Assembly (NCBI GenBank): GCA_965216315.1
Contig: CBDCFN010000016.1
Coordinates: 2,144,001-2,208,000, forward strand
Source of the DNA: a bacterium
Lineage (GTDB): Bacteria > UBA10199 > 2-02-FULL-50-16 > JAJFLM01
Reading direction: 5' to 3'
DNA: 64,000 nucleotides
The stretch's first letter is position 1. Each line of letters opens with the position of its first letter. Made by a program: the position numbers. Below, one piece after another: positions 12,001 to 60,000 of the stretch.

Positions 12001-15000
12001 GGCGGGGAAATCCCTTACTCCTGTCAGATTACGGTAAAAATTAATAATATGGGCAAGGTCGTTCGTGCAGAGTTTGAACAGCGCTCCGGCAATGAGCCCT
12101 TTGACCAGTCCGCCTTCCGCGCCATTTATAAGGCCTCCCCCCTTGACATTCCGCCGGAAAAGCTCAAAAGGGAAGCGGTACAGGACGGCTTCTTAATCGA
12201 ATTTGATCCCGAAGTGAAAGGCTAATTAATGAAACGCATTTTATTCTTACTTCCCATCCTGTTGGCCTACTCTGTCACGGCACATGCCCGCATCTACATC
12301 CGCATTGATGAAGTCGCCGAAAAGAAATTTCCGATCGCGATCACCAACCTCATCAACGACGGCGGCAAACGCGACAACAAAAACTGGTCACGCGAAATCC
12401 CCAAGATCCTGCAAAACGATCTGCGCATCTCGGGTCTCTTTGAATTTGTCGACCCGGAGATTTTTCCCGGCGAGGATTCAAACACATACAAGCCCGGTGA
12501 CGTGAAATTCCCGGCGTGGAACCTGCTTGGGATTCAGGGCCTCGTCAAAGGCGGTTTCACCTACGGAAGCGACGGCAAGGTCACGGCGTCGATCTATCTC
12601 TACGATCCTTCGCTGGGCCAAAAAATCGTCGCCCATGAGTACCGGGCCAACGCCGGTGAGTTCCGCAAGGTCGCGCACCATTTTGCCGACATGGTCATGG
12701 AAGCCCTCACCGGTTATCCCGGCATCTTTCGGACCCGCATTGCCTTTGTCTGCGGCAGCAAGAAGTCCGGTAAGGAAATCTGCAGCATGGGGGTCGACGG
12801 TAAAGAAGTCGCCAAGCACACCTCGGATCGCAACATCAATATCAGTCCCGAATTTTCCCCGGGCGGGGGCAAGATCGCTTACACCTCATTCACCGAGGAA
12901 GGGGATGCGGAAATCAAGGTGGTCAATGTCGGCTCGAAGTCGGTCCGGCAGATCACTAAAAAAGGCGGCATCAACCTCTCCCCAACCTGGACCCCGGGTG
13001 GCGGTCTTATCACCGCACTCGTCGGCGATAACGGCGACAACATCTACAACATCAGCATGAGCGGACGGCTCGTCAAGCGGCTAACCAATCATTGGAGTAT
13101 CGACATCGCCCCGTCATGGAGCCCGGGCGGCGACGCCTTTACCTTTTCTTCGGAACGGGCCGGCGGCCTGCACGTCTTCCGTGCCAATGCCGGCGGCGGC
13201 GGCGTGCAACGTTTGACCTTTGTCGGCTACCAGAATGATAACCCCGCCTGGTCGCCGGACGGTCAACGCATCATGTTTCAGGGACGTGACCAGGGAACCT
13301 GGGATCTCTTCATCATGAACCCGGACGGTTCGATGTTGCAGCGGCTCACCGCCGGCGCCGGCACCAATCAAGAACCGACCTGGGCCCCGAACAGCCAATA
13401 CATTGGTTTTGCCTCGAGCCGCGGCGGCGGCATGAGCATCTACATCATGAATGCGATGGGTGAGAACGTCACCAAGGTCGGCGGCGGAGTCATGCCGTCA
13501 TGGGGTCCGTTACCGAAGAAATCCCTATAACGCTAAGGCCTGCTCTAGATACTGCAAATTAATGCGCTCCGTCACGAGGCGCCTACGCTCCTGCTCCTGT
13601 TGACCTGTGAGTGTCTTGTCGACGAACACGAAATGATCCGGCCTGGTCTCGACCAACAATCCGTTATCACGCGCCCACTGCTCCATTTCCTGGTCCTTCT
13701 CAACAGCGAGGTAGAACAGGCGCATCCGCAAGTGATCACGCAGCTTCGTTTGGTCCTGGATTAACCCATCGACGTCAATCAAGGCGCTCAGACGATCCGC
13801 ATCAGACACGAACGGACCGGTATAGTTGCGCACCAAATCATACCCGGCTTCAATTCCCTTCCGGGCCCCGTCATTATGGTAGATCTCCGTAAGCTCTCTT
13901 TGCACTCCCGTCCAATCGATTCGCCATTTTTTATTCGCCAAATGGGTATGCCGGAGGAGAACGCTGAACACGGAGGCTTCGAGGCTCTCGCCAAACGTCT
14001 CGGAGTCCCCGATCAATTTATGAAGTATCTTAAAGATCTCTGCCTTGTAGGCTTGTTTGAAATCGCTATCGAACCAACCGGCGACCGTGTCTCCGAAGGT
14101 CGCGAACGTACCGAAGGCGCCGGCAATGAAGTCACCCCGTTCCTGGACGTTATAAATATCCTGACAGAGACGGATCACGTCAAAAAAGCGTTCGTCACTG
14201 TCACCCGTGAGCGCGTGACCAATCAGATCGGCCACCCCGCGGGCCCCCAGGTCAACGATACCGGCCCAGCCGACCAAGCGGGCCGTCCCGACAGCCAGTC
14301 GGGCGACGGCGGCCTTGGGACCCAAACCGCCGAGTTGGAACCCTTTGATGACGGACGTGGTTTCGAGAGCCTCGGCCAGGACCGGAACCTGAGTCGCCAA
14401 GGCGTAGGGAATCCCGGCCAACACGAGTCCTCCGAACATCGTCGCAGTTTCATCCGCCTCGACGCCGAGAAAATCGAGCAGGCCGTGCGCCAAATATTGG
14501 AAACCCATAAAGGTGGGAACCTGCCCGAGCGCTTGCAACGGGCTCTTCTGCACCAGTCCCGCCTTATACAGCCCCTGGTGAATCAACATAACGCTCGTAA
14601 ACAGGACCGGACTGCGGGCCTCTTCGGGCAAGACTCCCGCCTCAATCAGGCTTCCTATCAACCCTTGATCGAGGGCGACGACCACTGCGGCTCCCCCGAA
14701 AAGCGAGACGGTCAGCCCGAAGGTACCCGGCGTATTGGGTCCGTTCGGGCCACCCGTCGCGGCGCGCAGCGCGGAGGGAGCCGAACCGGCGCGCGACAGA
14801 GTCAATTGCATCGTCAGCTCGCCGTTGCTCATCACCATCTGACTCAGCCGGAACGAAATCGGCAAACGCCCTTCAACCGCCACCGCATAAAAGGGCTGTA
14901 AATAAGACTGCAGCGCCGGAGACAACTGTTTAAAGTGCCGTGTCAGCTCAAGATCTTGCTCAAAAGGCAAATCAAGCGAAAGCGGTTGTGGTGCGAGTAG

Positions 15001-57000: not shown

Positions 57001-60000
57001 GAGACCGAGACCATAGCGAACCCGCGTGCTGCGATCCGTCGAAGTTGGATTGGGATCTGTGGTCGGGTTGGGATCCGTTGTCGGATTGGGATCCGTCGTC
57101 GGATTGGGATCCGTCGTCGCGTCTGCGACGATACGTGAATCAGCGGTATCGCCGTTCAGTTGGGCATAAGTAAATGTCTGACCATTGACCACGACAGTAT
57201 AATCGGTCGGGTTAACCGTTGTCCCGCCAGTACTCGCAGCCGTTGCCGTATCCCTGATTCGAGCTGCCAATTGCCGCGCTTCTGCAACCGTTAATACATT
57301 TGCATCATTATTGCGTTCAGTAATTGCAACTGATACAGGATCAGCTCCGCTCCGAACAACGCTATAGTTAGTATCTGCCATGGTGGTCCTCCTAAAAGTC
57401 CTAGCTTATAAATTCCTCAAATAAATCCCTGTTGAAAAAGTCCTCGCACAGACACGAAAAAATATTCGTTTGCCTTGCACGTAGAAACTTATCGGGTTCC
57501 CAAAAAAGAAGTTGCTAAAAAACAAGGGGATAATCCGCGCGTGCTAAGTCGCAGATTACTAATGATAAAGCGGTTATTCTCGGATATTCCCGCAGGCAAT
57601 TTTGCGAAAATTCGAAAGGAAAACACAAGGAAAACGCAATGATAGCTTCCCGGAATACGGGAGTATACGCTAATTTGACCGCGCGATTGACATAAGCACC
57701 AAAAAAGTCTCTTCTTGCGACGCTTGGGCGGGGATCCACCTTATACACGACTGATTAAATATTCATGAGCGAACGCGTTTCGAAATCTAAACCAGCTCCC
57801 TCAATTAACAAGCAACTTTTCCTGTTTCCGGACGACGATCAGCCAGCTAAGGGGACTAAAGTTTTTACCTTTTTTTTCGGAGGAAAACCATGATGCGGAT
57901 TAAAATCATCACCAGCTTATTTGTAACTTTGACGTCACTGACATTCATCGGTCAGGCCAACGCGGCTTGGAGCGAGTATTTTTGTGACATCATTAACGGC
58001 AGTGCCAGCGCGCTCAATTCGGCAATCAACCACTACAATGCGAGTGGCGACGACCGGATGTGTAAAAAAGGGATCCGCTTTAAAGAGGCCCAGCACATCG
58101 CATTACCGGACGGTATTAGCATCACCCAGAGCCCGCCATCAGGCGAGACCTACGGCGTGGCGATTCGCCGCTGCTCCACGTCTGAAATTAACTGCCCGGA
58201 TCTCAGCGATACCGCGGTGAAGCTCGATTTCTCCGATTACACCAACGACAACGGCGATTGCCCGATTAAGGTTTCCAACGGTGCTAAAATTGATATTTTG
58301 AACCTCCAGATTACCGTCCCCAATAAGGACCGGGCCATCTGCACGGCGAGTGGTGACCCTATCGCTTTAGAAGATCAAAGCAATGACTATGCCTGGATCC
58401 ACAATGTGACGATTATTCAATCGACTCCGGTTGATCCTCATGATGATTGCTCCGCGGCGGACAACCCCGACGAGCCTGATAGTGACAACGATGGTGAAAT
58501 CGATTCGTGTGATGATGATGACGACAACGACGGAGTTACGGATGACGAAGACCAGTGTCCTAACGAAGCCGGTACGGTGATCCTCAAAGGCTGCCCCGAG
58601 GCGAATTGGTGCCTTGATATGAGCACCGGCGATGTCCTCCCGAAAGAGGGCGTTGATACCGACGGTGACGGCCTCGATGACGCCTGTGACAATTGTGACG
58701 ACCAAGACAGTGACGGCGTCTGCTCTGACGTTGATAATTGCCCAGATGACGCCAACCATGACCAGACCGACACCGACGGCGACTTAGACGGTGACGCCTG
58801 TGATGACGACGACGACGATGACGGCGTCCTCGACGGCGACGACAATTGTCCGCTGGATGTGAACGCCGGCCAAGAAGATACCGATGAAGATGGTCTCGGT
58901 GACGAGTGTGACGATGACGACAGCACGGGTGATTCCGATAGTGACGGCATCTGTGACGGCGCAATCGCGATCGGCACCTTCTGTGATGCCGGTCCAGATA
59001 ACTGCATCGATGACCCGAATCCCGGCCAAGAAGATGCGGACGGTGACACGATCGGTGACGTCTGTGATCCGGATGACGACAACGACGGCATCGTGGATGC
59101 AGTCGATAACTGTCCTTTAGATGCAAATTTTGATCAAACCAATACGGACGGCCTGCCGGATGGTGGCGACGCCTGTGACGCGGATGACGACGAAGACGGC
59201 GTCCCGGATGTGGGCGATGACTGTCCGCTGGATGCGTTAGACAGCGTCGACACGGATGGTGACGGCCTCTGCGACAACGCCGAAGGCGTACTCGGCACGA
59301 GCCCGGTCAATCCCGACACGGATGGCGACGACTATTGTGACGGCCCCAACATCGTGTTGGCCTTCTGTTCCAACCCGAATGACAACTGTCCGATTGACGC
59401 CAATCCGGGGCAGGAAGACGGAGACCTTGACGGGATCGGCGATGCCTGTGACGAAGTCCCGGCCCTACCCGATGCCGATGGCGATCTCATCCCGGATGTA
59501 ATTGACAACTGTCCCGGAGTGGCTTCGCTGGACCTGACGGATACCGATCTCGACGGTCTCGGCAATATCTGCGACCCGGATAATGACAACGATACGATTC
59601 TTGATGACGGCGATGGATCGCTGGTTGAAGGTGATAACACCTGTGTCGGTGGCAACACGGTCGCCTGTGATGACAACTGTCCGCTCATTGCCAATGCAGG
59701 CCAAGAAGATGCCGACAACGACGGCATCGGTGATGTCTGTGACTTCGGTGGGGGCGGTTTCGTGGACTCGGACCTCGACGGCATTCAAGATGCGATCGAC
59801 AACTGCCCGCTTACACCGTCGTTGGATCTGACAGACACCGACCTCGACGGTCAAGGCGATGTCTGCGATCCGGACAATGACAATGACACGATTCTTGATG
59901 ACGGCGACGGTTCGCTGATTGAAGGCGATGCCCCCTGTGTCGGCGGCAACGTCGTCGCCTGTGACGATAACTGTCCGTTTATTGCCAATCCTTTGCAGGC

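Follow-up and report, generated by a model that had tools for sequence, protein, structure and literature searches.

The 22-gene, 44-kb island at positions 13525–57381 (minus strand) of the 64,000-nucleotide window, i.e., the whole stretch of DNA analysed, is read here, tentatively and at somewhat below an even chance, as a lineage-specific, co-regulated cluster of envelope proteins that would be placed without Sec-type signal peptides, their N-terminal cysteines forming disulfides of small heads and not carrying acyl groups. Several lines of evidence indicate that large parts of the proteins leave the cytoplasm despite the absence of signal peptides.

Gene content of the island

The coordinates and strand of the 22 ORFs (g02418–g02439) agree with the genome-wide survey's note. 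No signal peptide was found in any of the 22 proteins, as had been claimed, and none can be hidden upstream, since an in-frame stop lies 1–26 codons before the start in 22/22 genes. With longest-ORF starts, 16 of the 22 proteins have at least two Cys in residues 1–35; the earlier count of 17 is reproduced if g02433 starts at Met28, a start that parallels that of g02434 and lies 14 nt downstream of a GAGGG box.

The Pfam search of all 22 proteins (E ≤ 0.1) yielded no family for 16 and single sub-threshold rows for three. FHA in g02435 (3e-10) and AAA in g02436 (6e-5), previously described as the only domains, are joined by a borderline FHA in g02437 (8e-4; 20.2 bits vs. the cut-off of 20.7). 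Three paralogue families are seen: A with nine members, B with five, and C with seven sharing a common C-terminal module. The survey had two, of eight and five members; B stands, while A gains g02431 by profile comparison (hhalign 94.6%, E 6.5e-8) and C is added. The elevated G+C content also holds, with the values revised from 58.6% vs. 50.8% to 57.4% in the island vs. 51.1% in the genome; it is the highest among all 44-kb windows of contig C16 (mean 50.9%, sd 2.1%).

Family A and the cysteine heads

The family A genes are as follows.

g02418: 13525..15171, minus strand; 548 aa; Cys 22, 31 (C-x8-C)
g02419: 15181..17580, minus strand; 799 aa; Cys 3, 12, 30
g02420: 17715..19412, minus strand; 565 aa; Cys 9, 29
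g02422: 20778..22751, minus strand; 657 aa; strict tag MCDSTIQSC; Cys 2, 9, 24
g02423: 22855..24825, minus strand; 656 aa; Cys 5, 24 (MTDQCRP...)
g02424: 24960..26786, minus strand; 608 aa; tag MCNPTTQCC; Cys 2, 8, 9, the protein's only Cys
g02425: 26903..29608, minus strand; 901 aa from TTG; database form starts at Met14, MVDLICDANGRC
g02426: 29814..31727, minus strand; 637 aa; Cys 19, 28 in CGAGEIGPVCY
g02431: 37585..40305, minus strand; distant member, 906 aa; strict tag MTCDPTISVC

The Cys positions given in the survey for g02419, g02422, and g02424 were recovered. All nine are versions of one helical protein whose helices are rich in glycine and moderately hydrophobic, and whose fold has no PDB match; the AF2 model of g02418 (45-sequence alignment) has pLDDT 85.9, and its fold search against the PDB gave no match beyond a C-terminal helical hairpin.

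The N-terminal Cys pattern exceeds chance. In 67 full-length family A representatives, residues 1–35 hold 102 of the 229 Cys, where an even spread would put 11.8. The motif C[DN][PS]x[IL]xxC is N-terminal in 16 of these 67 and never occurs beyond residue 30; in the island's own genome, three of the 2135 proxy genes carry it, each of them an island gene. As the survey claimed, other genera retain the tag. The head is much better conserved than the protein bodies. The strict tag, searched as a DNA pattern in 93 genomes with the reversed pattern as control, gave 13 matches (control, 3). Six of them begin real genes, all in the cluster-bearing genomes G000, G001, G002, and G010; the other seven comprise three out-of-frame matches and four in-frame ones, the latter being short or internal ORFs. 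One tagged protein of G010 is a 1434-aa orphan, encoded on another contig among housekeeping genes; it falls outside family A (hhalign 2.6%) and has no Pfam family.

Such a distribution would suit a sharpened form of the survey's reading, in which the head is itself the label that sends proteins into a new sorting route run by the cluster, with the AAA+ ATPase, FHA, and small transmembrane (TM) proteins as the machine and families A and B as cargo; direction would come from oxidation that traps the Cys pair beyond the membrane, as in mitochondrial MIA40 import. The confinement of gene-starting tags to cluster-holding genomes, the conservation of the head, its portability to the G010 orphan, and AAA+ homologues that travel with the cluster (6/93 genomes) all favor this. 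However, the presumed machine parts g02436, g02433, g02434, and g02421 themselves bear Cys pairs, which also speaks against the survey's split into cargo and FHA/AAA+ handlers; some presumed cargo has no Cys pair (Cys-less family A members starting MTxPIVYN in G010 and in representatives P0035 and P0040, and g02439); at least five head types differ in Cys spacing (x6, x8, x9, x12–14, x19); no channel-forming component was identified; and the AAA+ gene was not found in G010 with the query used, though the cluster is kept there. We regard a sorting label as rather unlikely, and the survey's general label is not supported, the tag being absent from g02435, g02437, g02439, and the Cys-less family A members of relatives.

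Families B and C and membrane topology

The genes of families B and C are listed below.

g02427: 31864..33195, minus strand; family B; likely start 33177, MGCDLYGAS
g02428: 33434..34756, minus strand; family B, 440 aa; six conserved Cys (3, 18, 67, 118, 154, 163), TM EFFFLIAAFTIGPD, Gly linker, Pro/Val tail
g02429: 35101..36090, minus strand; family B, 329 aa
g02430: 36319..37422, minus strand; family B, 367 aa; first Cys pair (4, 49) split by a 31-residue insert
g02432: 40333..41613, minus strand; family B; likely start 41583, MGCELYGAS
g02421: 19562..20674, minus strand; family C, 370 aa; four Cys before TM 88–106; C-terminal LPMEARLS module ending RRRRGI
g02433: 41731..42591, minus strand; family C; likely start 42510, MPPENQCFD...C; Pro/Thr stalk, TM, C-terminal module ending RRRRGR
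g02434: 42525..43322, minus strand; family C; likely start 43304, MPPDALCFD...C; TM and C-terminal module
g02435: 43393..45831, minus strand; 812 aa; FHA 94–176; middle-domain motif GVCNERG..GGRHAWV..LDPQ; two family C modules; no TM; single Cys, Cys388
g02436: 45908..49303, minus strand; 1131 aa; Cys 22, 32, 249, 284; hydrophobic segment 395–413 with no Cys after it; AAA+ 496–630; family C module
g02437: 49563..52937, minus strand; 1124 aa; Ser/Leu-rich N-terminus ending VLAST; TM 98–116; weak FHA 161–235; family C modules with three PLLR[DAG]G-type motif matches
g02438: 53158..55242, minus strand; 694 aa; Cys 5, 101; TM 333–351; C-terminal module ending RLRRGR

The first Cys pair is invariant in family B and in B-like proteins of two other genera, the remainder being 20–26% identical, and g02438 orthologues retain a Cys at position 4–5. 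The middle-domain motif of g02435 we take to be transglutaminase-like; Pfam found no transglutaminase in that domain.

Topology was assigned from our own hydropathy and charge counts, not by a trained predictor. Eleven island proteins have a single hydrophobic segment; 45 of their Cys precede it (~2119 residues) and two follow it (~3555 residues). The number before it is even in 10 of the 11, and the 15 residues flanking the segment hold 1–4 Lys and Arg on the C-terminal side vs. 0–2 on the N-terminal side. Several of the segments, those of family B and of the AAA+ protein, are only moderately hydrophobic (1.2–1.3 Kyte–Doolittle), which weakens the assignment. Twelve orthologues from G001, G010, and G051 show 36 Cys before the TM segment and three after, and all ten that have any Cys before it have an even number. 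Among same-genome controls, even counts outnumber odd ones in crudely defined signal-peptide proteins (148 vs. 75), the figures for soluble proteins without signal peptides being 371 and 434. In family A the N-terminal Cys are frequently three, an odd count that weighs against the disulfide reading.

The AAA+ (496–630) and FHA (161–235) domains, which need the cytoplasm, are C-terminal to the TM segments, and the positive-inside rule places both in the cytoplasm. Since the Cys almost all precede the membrane segment, come in even numbers, and lie opposite the positively charged side, we take the tag to be the opening disulfide of an exported head and not a site of acylation; by hydropathy, charge, and Cys counts, the heads look like exported, disulfide-bonded domains.

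Cytoplasmic Cys pairs that act as metal ligands (zinc or iron–sulfur knuckles), in proteins on the inner face of the membrane with nothing exported, would make the absent signal peptide no puzzle. Short-spaced Cys pairs are common as such ligands, and four-Cys heads exist (Cys 2, 9, 22, 31 in a G002 protein; Cys 3, 10, 22, 31 in P0019). We nevertheless consider this very improbable: the charge bias and the AAA+/FHA positions put the Cys side opposite the cytoplasm, spacings of x6–x19 are not knuckle-like, the heads are borne on Pro/Thr stalks, six Cys are conserved in the family B ectodomain, and the barrel of g02439 is of the outer-membrane type. Acylation as in bacterial lipoproteins, giving a membrane anchor, seems hardly credible; the survey had named an acylation site as one option. 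Many members have Cys at position 2–5, and a few relatives have L-A-A-C or L-Q-A-C ahead of the first Cys; but the proteins show neither signal peptide nor lipobox, with no positively charged n-region or hydrophobic h-region, 0–11 residues before the Cys, and stops just upstream, while the classical lipoproteins that this genome encodes carry normal signal peptides. The Cys are also paired, the motif requiring a second one six residues on, and Gly2 is not conserved: 4/5 family B proteins have MGC at the likely start, whereas their paralogues and orthologues begin with MTC, MASC, or MSGxxC.

Predicted outer-membrane protein g02439

g02439: 55360..57381, minus strand; 673 aa; no signal peptide; Pro/Thr linker; 8-stranded outer-membrane-type beta-barrel 119–340; Ig-like domains 361–657

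The structural model, built on four sequences (pTM 0.36), has pLDDT 68 overall and 70–90 in most 10-residue blocks of the barrel. In structure comparison, residues 119–340 match NspA (Z 14.0, rmsd 3.2, 150 aligned), PagL (Z 12.9), OprF-N (12.5), OmpA (12.4), and OmpW (12.3), and residues 361–657 look like surface proteins built of tandem Ig/FN3 domains (203 Foldseek hits at E ≤ 1e-3). As modelled, g02439 belongs to the outer membrane and joins an OmpA/NspA-like barrel to Ig-like domains, although it has no signal peptide itself.

Promoters and the sigma factor

A sigma-28-type promoter, GCAACTTT-N11-13-GCCGATAA, precedes 15 of the 22 island genes. The pattern used, GCAACTTT-N11-13-[GA]CCGATAA with at least 6/8 in the -35 box, occurs before 34 of 2441 other proxy genes. 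The sites, and a weaker one, are as follows.

g02419 promoter: 17605..17631, minus strand; -35 box 6/8
g02420 promoter (weaker): 19444..19470, minus strand; -35 box 5/8
g02421 promoter: 20725..20751, minus strand; -35 box 8/8
g02422 promoter: 22787..22813, minus strand; -35 box 7/8
g02423 promoter: 24870..24896, minus strand; -35 box 7/8
g02424 promoter: 26835..26861, minus strand; -35 box 7/8
g02425 promoter: 29638..29664, minus strand; -35 box 8/8
g02427 promoter: 33300..33326, minus strand; -35 box 8/8
g02428 promoter: 34901..34927, minus strand; -35 box 8/8
g02429 promoter: 36161..36187, minus strand; -35 box 8/8
g02430 promoter: 37483..37509, minus strand; -35 box 7/8
g02432 promoter: 41651..41677, minus strand; -35 box 8/8
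g02434 promoter: 43328..43354, minus strand; -35 box 6/8
g02436 promoter: 49385..49411, minus strand; -35 box 6/8
g02437 promoter: 53023..53049, minus strand; -35 box 8/8; -10 box GCCGATAC
g02439 promoter: 57489..57515, minus strand; -35 box 7/8

The same promoter type is seen before cluster genes in G001, G010, and G002. The genome's best FliA/WhiG-like sigma factor (133 bits vs. the curated cut-off of 189.6) is encoded inside the T3SS cluster; flagellin was not found in the genome. Together, the promoters and this sigma factor form a first, indirect link of the island to the T3SS. Ordinary lipoprotein genes are also preceded by this promoter, so that what it marks is a regulon of the envelope rather than T3SS substrates in themselves.

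Conservation in relatives

At least four genomes, all from a single uncultured class, share the cluster's gene order, which is kept in G001, G010, and G051; the cluster is syntenic in other genera, the FHA and AAA+ genes included. Of the 93 genomes of this class, 91 have SctV and only five or six have cluster genes, hence co-occurrence with the T3SS is neutral.

The proteins might instead be effectors injected by the T3SS or another contact-dependent route, likened to chlamydial Inc proteins, whose helices would insert into a prey or host membrane and whose Cys would be lipidated by the host or oxidised. This is distinctly unlikely in our view. Their leaderless N-termini are Ser/Thr/Pro-rich with few charges, the helices are weaker than typical inner-membrane TM segments, paralogues are expanded in tandem in a patchily distributed cluster, Cys is scarce past residue 35 (0.35% vs. 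1.16% genome-wide), and the MGC starts of family B would fit lipidation. The closest named SctV relatives are from Archangium MAGs (53% identity), and prey lysis by Myxococcus depends on a needle-less T3SS, for which the abstract and section 11 of PMC12075869 name no substrates. Yet the variable second residue, the even Cys parity, and the pairs point to disulfides rather than lipid anchors; an OmpA-like barrel and a membrane-anchored AAA+ protein better suit the producer's own envelope; and neither a toxin or enzyme fold in any island member nor immunity-like small genes between paralogues were found.

Discussion

Under the preferred reading, that of an envelope cluster with disulfide-bonded heads, the island would encode three kinds of proteins: (i) single-pass inner-membrane proteins, N-terminus out and C-terminus in (family B, family C, the AAA+ protein, and one FHA protein), with the common module ending R-x-G-R on the cytoplasmic side; (ii) the outer-membrane protein g02439; and (iii) the nine helical family A proteins. 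Outside the cytoplasm, small heads would sit on stalks rich in Pro, Thr, and Ser, with the N-terminal Cys supplying their first disulfide pair(s). Oxidation of the heads in the periplasm is suggested by a VKOR homologue encoded in the genome, where DsbB was not found, and by the even-Cys bias of its signal-peptide proteins. Export may proceed via the export gate of the needle-less T3SS, given that the island promoters suit the sigma factor of the T3SS cluster, and the conserved head (CDPxIxxC and variants) may help to target or hold the N-terminus across the membrane.

The interpretation in the genome-wide survey's note is partly supported: the leaderless yet exported parts and the conserved cluster are retained, and the tie to the T3SS gains a regulatory link; acylation, the division into cargo and handlers, and a universal label are not supported. 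ProW has a leaderless N-terminal tail of about 100 residues; we know of no precedent for leaderless tails of 90–400 residues crossing a bacterial inner membrane, which counts against the preferred reading. Leaderless membrane and outer-membrane proteins with disulfide-bonded heads would imply an export route not yet described.

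Gene content and families of the island

Re-reading of the ORFs, their cysteine counts and their relatives confirms and extends the observation, made in the genome-wide survey's note, of an N-terminal cysteine pattern in a block of 22 genes. The block is reproduced as 22 consecutive ORFs, all on the minus strand, at 13525–57381 (g02418–g02439), and the cysteine positions quoted for it are correct. An in-frame stop lies 1–26 codons upstream of the start in all 22 ORFs, and a GGAG-type ribosome-binding box precedes most starts; because the stops are so close, a longer N-terminus with a signal peptide is impossible. 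At least two cysteines within residues 1–35 are found in 16 of the 22 proteins; the previously reported count of 17 is obtained if g02433 begins at Met28, a start that has its own GAGGG box and parallels that of g02434.

The N-termini, judged by direct reading and not by a trained predictor, do not have the Sec or lipoprotein pattern of a positively charged n-region, an h-region of at least seven residues, and a cleavage site or lipobox, in agreement with the reported absence of signal peptides. The proposed acylation of the N-terminal cysteine is rejected, since there is neither a signal peptide nor a lipobox, and only 0–11 uncharged residues precede the first cysteine in the island proteins and their relatives.

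All-against-all BLASTP and profile comparison yield three families. Of the two proposed earlier, the one with five members stands, the one with eight has nine by profile comparison, and a third is added.

Paralogue families among the island proteins
Family A: nine members, g02418–g02420, g02422–g02426 and the distant g02431 (BLASTP and profile comparison)
Family B: five members, g02427–g02430 and g02432 (BLASTP)
Family C: seven members, g02421 and g02433–g02438 (common C-terminal module)

The family-C module comprises about 70 residues (LPAEARLS...PLLRDG), with an Arg-rich end such as RRRRGR in six of the seven proteins. Elsewhere in the 2.96-Mb genome, no relatives of the three families are found except one paralogue of the middle domain of g02435.

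In Pfam (E≤0.1), 16 of the 22 proteins match no family and three have single sub-threshold rows; NCBIfam adds only weak FHA rows. The survey's note had FHA and AAA domains in two proteins only; both hold, namely, FHA (PF00498) in g02435 (40.8 bits, gathering score 20.7) and AAA+ (PF00004) in g02436 (23.9 bits, gathering score 21.2; Walker A read as GPSGSGKG), and a further, borderline FHA domain is seen in g02437 (20.2 bits, slightly under the 20.7 cut-off). The ESM Atlas returns only generic AAA clusters for the AAA+ protein, and PDB sequence searches with this protein, the family-B profile, and g02435 give nothing meaningful; neither source points to a particular clade for the AAA+ protein. 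The middle domain of g02435 (43393–45831, minus strand), without a Pfam match at E≤0.1 or a hit in the PDB sequence search, carries a Cys-His-Asp motif (GVCNERG ... GGRHAWV ... LDPQ), in which the sole cysteine of the protein is the putative nucleophile; we take the motif to recall transglutaminase-like cysteine proteases (G-x-C ... H-A-W ... D-P, triad Cys-His-Asp). It is kept in three of four aligned homologues, being lost in that of the related genome G010, and is retained in the paralogue outside the island (C16:290857–292749).

The G+C content of the island, 57.4%, is the highest among 44-kb windows of contig C16 (mean 50.9%, sd 2.1%); the flanks of the island within the window are also G+C-rich (55.2%).

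Distribution of the cluster

With the family-A profile, a scan of 1.84 billion proteins recovers 87 cluster representatives (E≤1e-3), and the family is present in 5 of 61 related genomes; the AAA+ protein is found in 6, and g02439 in 5, of the 93 genomes of the class. In G001, the cluster lies on one contig in the order seen here (g02439-like, g02438-like, FHA proteins, AAA+, B-like and A genes); in G010, the order is kept and no AAA+ gene is detected; in G051, pieces of the cluster are spread over several contigs. As the gene order is kept in relatives, the island is a conserved cluster in which the genome studied here has enlarged families A and B. Outside this genome, family B is not found, apart from divergent B-like proteins: its alignment has no relative in the genome contigs searched, and a word-based protein search recovers only the five paralogues themselves (the same search yields three proteins for g02420 and five, none of them named, for the AAA+ core).

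G051 has four AAA+ paralogues (loci L033, L036, L040, and L041), of which three form a tandem array on a single contig. The N-terminal motif PTLxQ[VL]LNFF is common to two, and a third has LDELLNFF further in; three have two cysteines, both ahead of the transmembrane (TM) segment, and three end with [IF]GR.

N-terminal cysteine heads

Of the 229 cysteines in 67 full-length family-A representatives, 102 fall within residues 1–35, where 11.8 would be expected. The strict tag, C[DN][PS]x[IL]xxC, is N-terminal in 16 of the 67 and never occurs later; in the whole genome, it is found in 3 of 2135 proxy genes, all within the island. Other heads are C-x8-C within E[IL]GPVC[YN] as a family-A variant; C-x12-14-C in family B and B-like proteins, with an invariant pair on bodies only 20–26% identical; C-x9-C in the AAA+ protein g02436 and its G001 orthologue; and C-x19-C in g02433 and g02434, where the pair flanks a hairpin motif. 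All four orthologues of g02438 keep one cysteine at position 4–5.

Searched as a DNA pattern in the 93 genomes, the strict tag gives 13 hits against 3 for the reversed control; six of the hits begin real genes, all in cluster-bearing genomes. One of these genes, in G010 (L055:10701–15005, contig C6), is encoded amid housekeeping genes on a different contig from the G010 cluster, and its 1434-aa orphan product begins with MCDPTITSC, ends with ...IPRR, has no Pfam family, and does not belong to family A (hhalign 2.6%). Because the tag thus occurs on a protein outside family A, and begins real genes only in cluster genomes, the head appears to be a portable module that goes with the cluster. We retain as a rival reading that the cysteine head is itself the address label; beside its portability stands the finding that not every protein has the tag. 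Cysteine heads are missing from g02435, g02437, g02439, and some family-A proteins of relatives, all of which nevertheless have their own conserved N-termini.

As a further N-terminal motif, M-x-P-P or M-x-x-P-[IVL] was tested and dropped, since it shows no clear enrichment. A limited literature search for leaderless N-terminal cysteine signals gave nothing relevant, and we do not claim their absence from print.

A second leaderless N-terminal tag is seen in this genome, an uncharged Ser/Thr/Leu-rich stretch ending with [VIL]LA[AS][STG] at residues 9–35 (e.g., ...SSAVLASTS, ...SALLASSAG), carried in the window by g02437 (49563–52937, minus strand). Of 2135 proxy genes, 56 carry it, where about 14 would be expected, and 44 of the 56 have no Lys or Arg ahead of the motif; the carriers are 210–3856 aa long, many of them Cys-poor. 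The gene directly after the type III secretion system (T3SS) cluster (C16:360590–362743) has a similar Ser/Thr-rich N-terminus (...ATTQLASAG), although the motif itself is not matched. This second tag may serve the needle-less T3SS as its principal signal.

Topology and predicted disulfides

Eleven island proteins have one hydrophobic segment, with 45 cysteines before it (about 2119 residues) and 2 after it (about 3555 residues); the number before the segment is even in 10 of the 11. Lys and Arg amount to 1–4 per 15 residues behind the segment and 0–2 ahead of it. The same trend is observed for 12 orthologues from three other genomes, with 36 cysteines before the TM segment and 3 after it, and an even number in all ten that have any cysteine there; their TM segments are more hydrophobic than those of the island. 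On the C-terminal side of the TM segment lie the AAA+ and FHA domains, which have to be in the cytoplasm; because of this and of the cysteine and charge pattern, the Cys-bearing N-terminal parts (90 to about 400 residues) are predicted to lie outside.

Cysteine counts of crudely defined signal-peptide proteins of this genome are even in 148 and odd in 75 cases, compared with 371 even and 434 odd for soluble proteins without a signal peptide; the genome thus shows the even-cysteine bias of disulfide-forming bacteria. It has a VKOR homologue, and DsbB was not found in it. The tag is best read, from these sequence patterns, as the first disulfide of a putative head that a Pro/Thr/Ser-rich stalk carries outside the cytoplasm; the disulfide reading suits family A less well, because it often has three N-terminal cysteines.

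Structure models

The model of g02439 was built on four sequences (pLDDT 68; 70–90 in most 10-residue blocks of the barrel). The 673-aa protein is modelled as a 118-residue N-terminal part, an eight-stranded barrel at residues 119–340, and three or four Ig-like domains. The predicted barrel is most similar to NspA (Z 14.0, 150 of 155 residues aligned), followed by PagL, the N-terminal domain of OprF, OmpA, and OmpW (Z 12.3–12.9). The protein has no Pfam match and no signal peptide; its barrel is internal and its terminal Phe is not conserved, so that the usual pair of Sec signal and C-terminal beta-signal is absent. If the model is correct, this leaderless outer-membrane barrel would be the clearest sign that the cluster uses an export route needing no Sec signal.

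For the family-A protein g02418 (45-sequence alignment, pLDDT 85.9, pTM 0.61), the model consists of a short Cys-bearing N-terminal helical hairpin, a small alpha/beta domain, a Gly/Pro linker, a helix bundle, and a C-terminal alpha/beta domain; the predicted bundle is Gly/Ala-rich, with some hydrophobic helices. Foldseek finds no match to this model in the PDB at E≤1e-3, and in VIA-align the best Z, 7.6, covers only a C-terminal helical hairpin.

Promoters and the type III cluster

The two-box pattern GCAACTTT-N11-13-[GA]CCGATAA precedes 15 of the 22 island genes, compared with 34 of 2441 other proxy genes, and such promoters are also found before cluster genes in G001, G010, and G002. FliA uses the –10 box GCCGATAA for late flagellar genes; we take the –10 box of the island promoters to be that of FliA (sigma-28), and the island genes show both boxes at the right spacing. 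The best FliA/WhiG-like sigma factor (TIGR02479, 133 bits, under the curated cut-off of 189.6) is encoded inside the T3SS cluster; flagellin was not found in the genome. The components encoded in this cluster are SctV, D, J, L, N, O, P, Q, R, S, and T, and the 40 kb examined contain no secretin gene; the nearest named SctV records are from Archangium MAGs (53% identity). In Myxococcus, a needle-less T3SS is required for prey lysis, the passages covered naming no substrates (PMC12075869).

The sigma-28-type promoters, together with the FliA-like sigma factor gene, suggest an indirect link between the island and the T3SS; island-type promoters also precede ordinary lipoprotein genes. Co-occurrence was dropped as a test of the link, since SctV is present in 91 of the 93 genomes, with or without the island cluster. 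Neither VirB4 nor TssC was found in this genome.

An inverted repeat, TTGCGAA-N12-TTCGCAA, overlaps the –35 box in the promoters of g02427–g02429 (33300–36200, minus strand) and may be an operator; the palindrome is clear at the –35 box in these three family-B promoters only. The TTGCGAA half-site has 28 copies in the island, an about threefold enrichment.

Flanking genes

Genes of the bufferin-type operon near the island
1484–1876, plus strand: ORF enclosing a small, signal-peptide-bearing precursor that has several cysteines
1768–2712, plus strand: MbnB/TglH/ChrH enzyme (E 2.5e-101)
2699–3469, plus strand: DUF2063 partner

This RiPP operon of the bufferin type (1586–3469, plus strand) encodes a system for cysteine modification and lies 10 kb away from the island. 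The genes tolQ, tolR, a TonB_2-domain (TolA-like) gene, and tolB occupy 10126–13530 (plus strand), and the island begins 6 nt inside the end of tolB, the place where pal usually follows. On the other side, the island is adjoined by genes for two large proteins that have thrombospondin-type-3 repeats and ordinary signal peptides (57890–61756 and 62007–64000, plus strand), the second of which has a perfect copy of the island promoter, with 8 of 8 in the –35 box.

Comparison with known systems

Type III export substrates (flagellar rod and hook proteins, injectisome translocators, chlamydial Inc proteins) share with the island proteins leaderless N-termini and moderately hydrophobic helices, and the genome has a T3SS cluster with a sigma factor gene and FliA-type island promoters. 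However, the island has conserved, cysteine-containing N-terminal motifs and lacks chaperone genes, several members resemble membrane proteins that stay in the cell in N-out/C-in orientation with their AAA+ or FHA domains in the cytoplasm, and no sequence or fold similarity to known type III substrates was seen in Pfam, NCBIfam, and PDB fold searches.

MIA40/Erv1 is the mitochondrial disulfide relay that imports twin-CX3C and twin-CX9C proteins. There, as proposed here, cysteine pairs of leaderless proteins would act both as a mark and as a trap on the oxidising side, and the CX9C pattern recurs in the AAA+ proteins of the island and G001; the island pairs, however, are those of a bacterium, single and not twin, with spacings from x6 to x19, on large, membrane-anchored proteins. 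The E. coli protein ProW is N-out (type III, reverse signal-anchor) with N-tail translocation; such proteins have, as predicted for the island, a single TM segment, a positive-inside flank, and an external N-terminal part without a cleavable leader, whereas the island tails, of about 90–400 residues, would be folded disulfide-bearing domains with conserved extreme N-termini. The modelled barrel of g02439 matches small eight-stranded outer-membrane barrels (NspA, OmpA-N, OprF-N, OmpW, PagL) in fold, and differs from them by its mid-protein position and by the lack of a signal peptide, a Pfam match, and a conserved C-terminal Phe. Some injected effectors are myristoylated or palmitoylated at the N-terminus (AvrRpm1/AvrB at MGC..., SspH2/SseI at Cys), and MGC starts four of the five family-B proteins (likely starts), many island members having Cys at position 2–5; yet Gly2 is not conserved, and the island cysteines form conserved pairs of even parity on the predicted extracytoplasmic side.

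Interpretation and significance

Our preferred reading, held with a confidence that stops a little short of even, is that the island encodes co-regulated leaderless envelope proteins with disulfide-bonded N-terminal heads, exported most likely via the needle-less type III gate; within it, extracytoplasmic disulfides are held more firmly than the reading as a whole, and the export route less firmly. A more specific, and rather improbable, proposal is a leaderless inner-membrane route for large N-terminal domains, a bacterial counterpart of oxidative trapping. Here the short conserved Cys-pair head (CDPxIxxC and variants) would be threaded first across the inner membrane, through the needle-less type III export gate or a channel formed by the AAA+, FHA, and TM proteins of the cluster; a disulfide formed outside would then lock the head in place, and a downstream TM segment or outer-membrane barrel would set the final location. 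If true, this would be a new way of building N-out membrane and outer-membrane proteins without Sec signals.

By the usual view, a Sec or Tat signal is required for outer-membrane barrels and for large domains in the periplasm. The conserved cluster described here has neither, and it would include an OmpA-like barrel protein and membrane proteins with predicted outer parts of 90–400 residues; it still has the cysteine statistics of exported proteins. The nine-member family A adds a confidently modelled, predicted helical fold without a PDB match. If confirmed, the preferred reading would show what purpose a type III apparatus without needle and secretin serves, a question also raised by predation in Myxococcus, or, alternatively, it would uncover a new route of translocation; in both cases, the head motif together with the promoter would provide a sequence rule by which substrates could be found in metagenomes.
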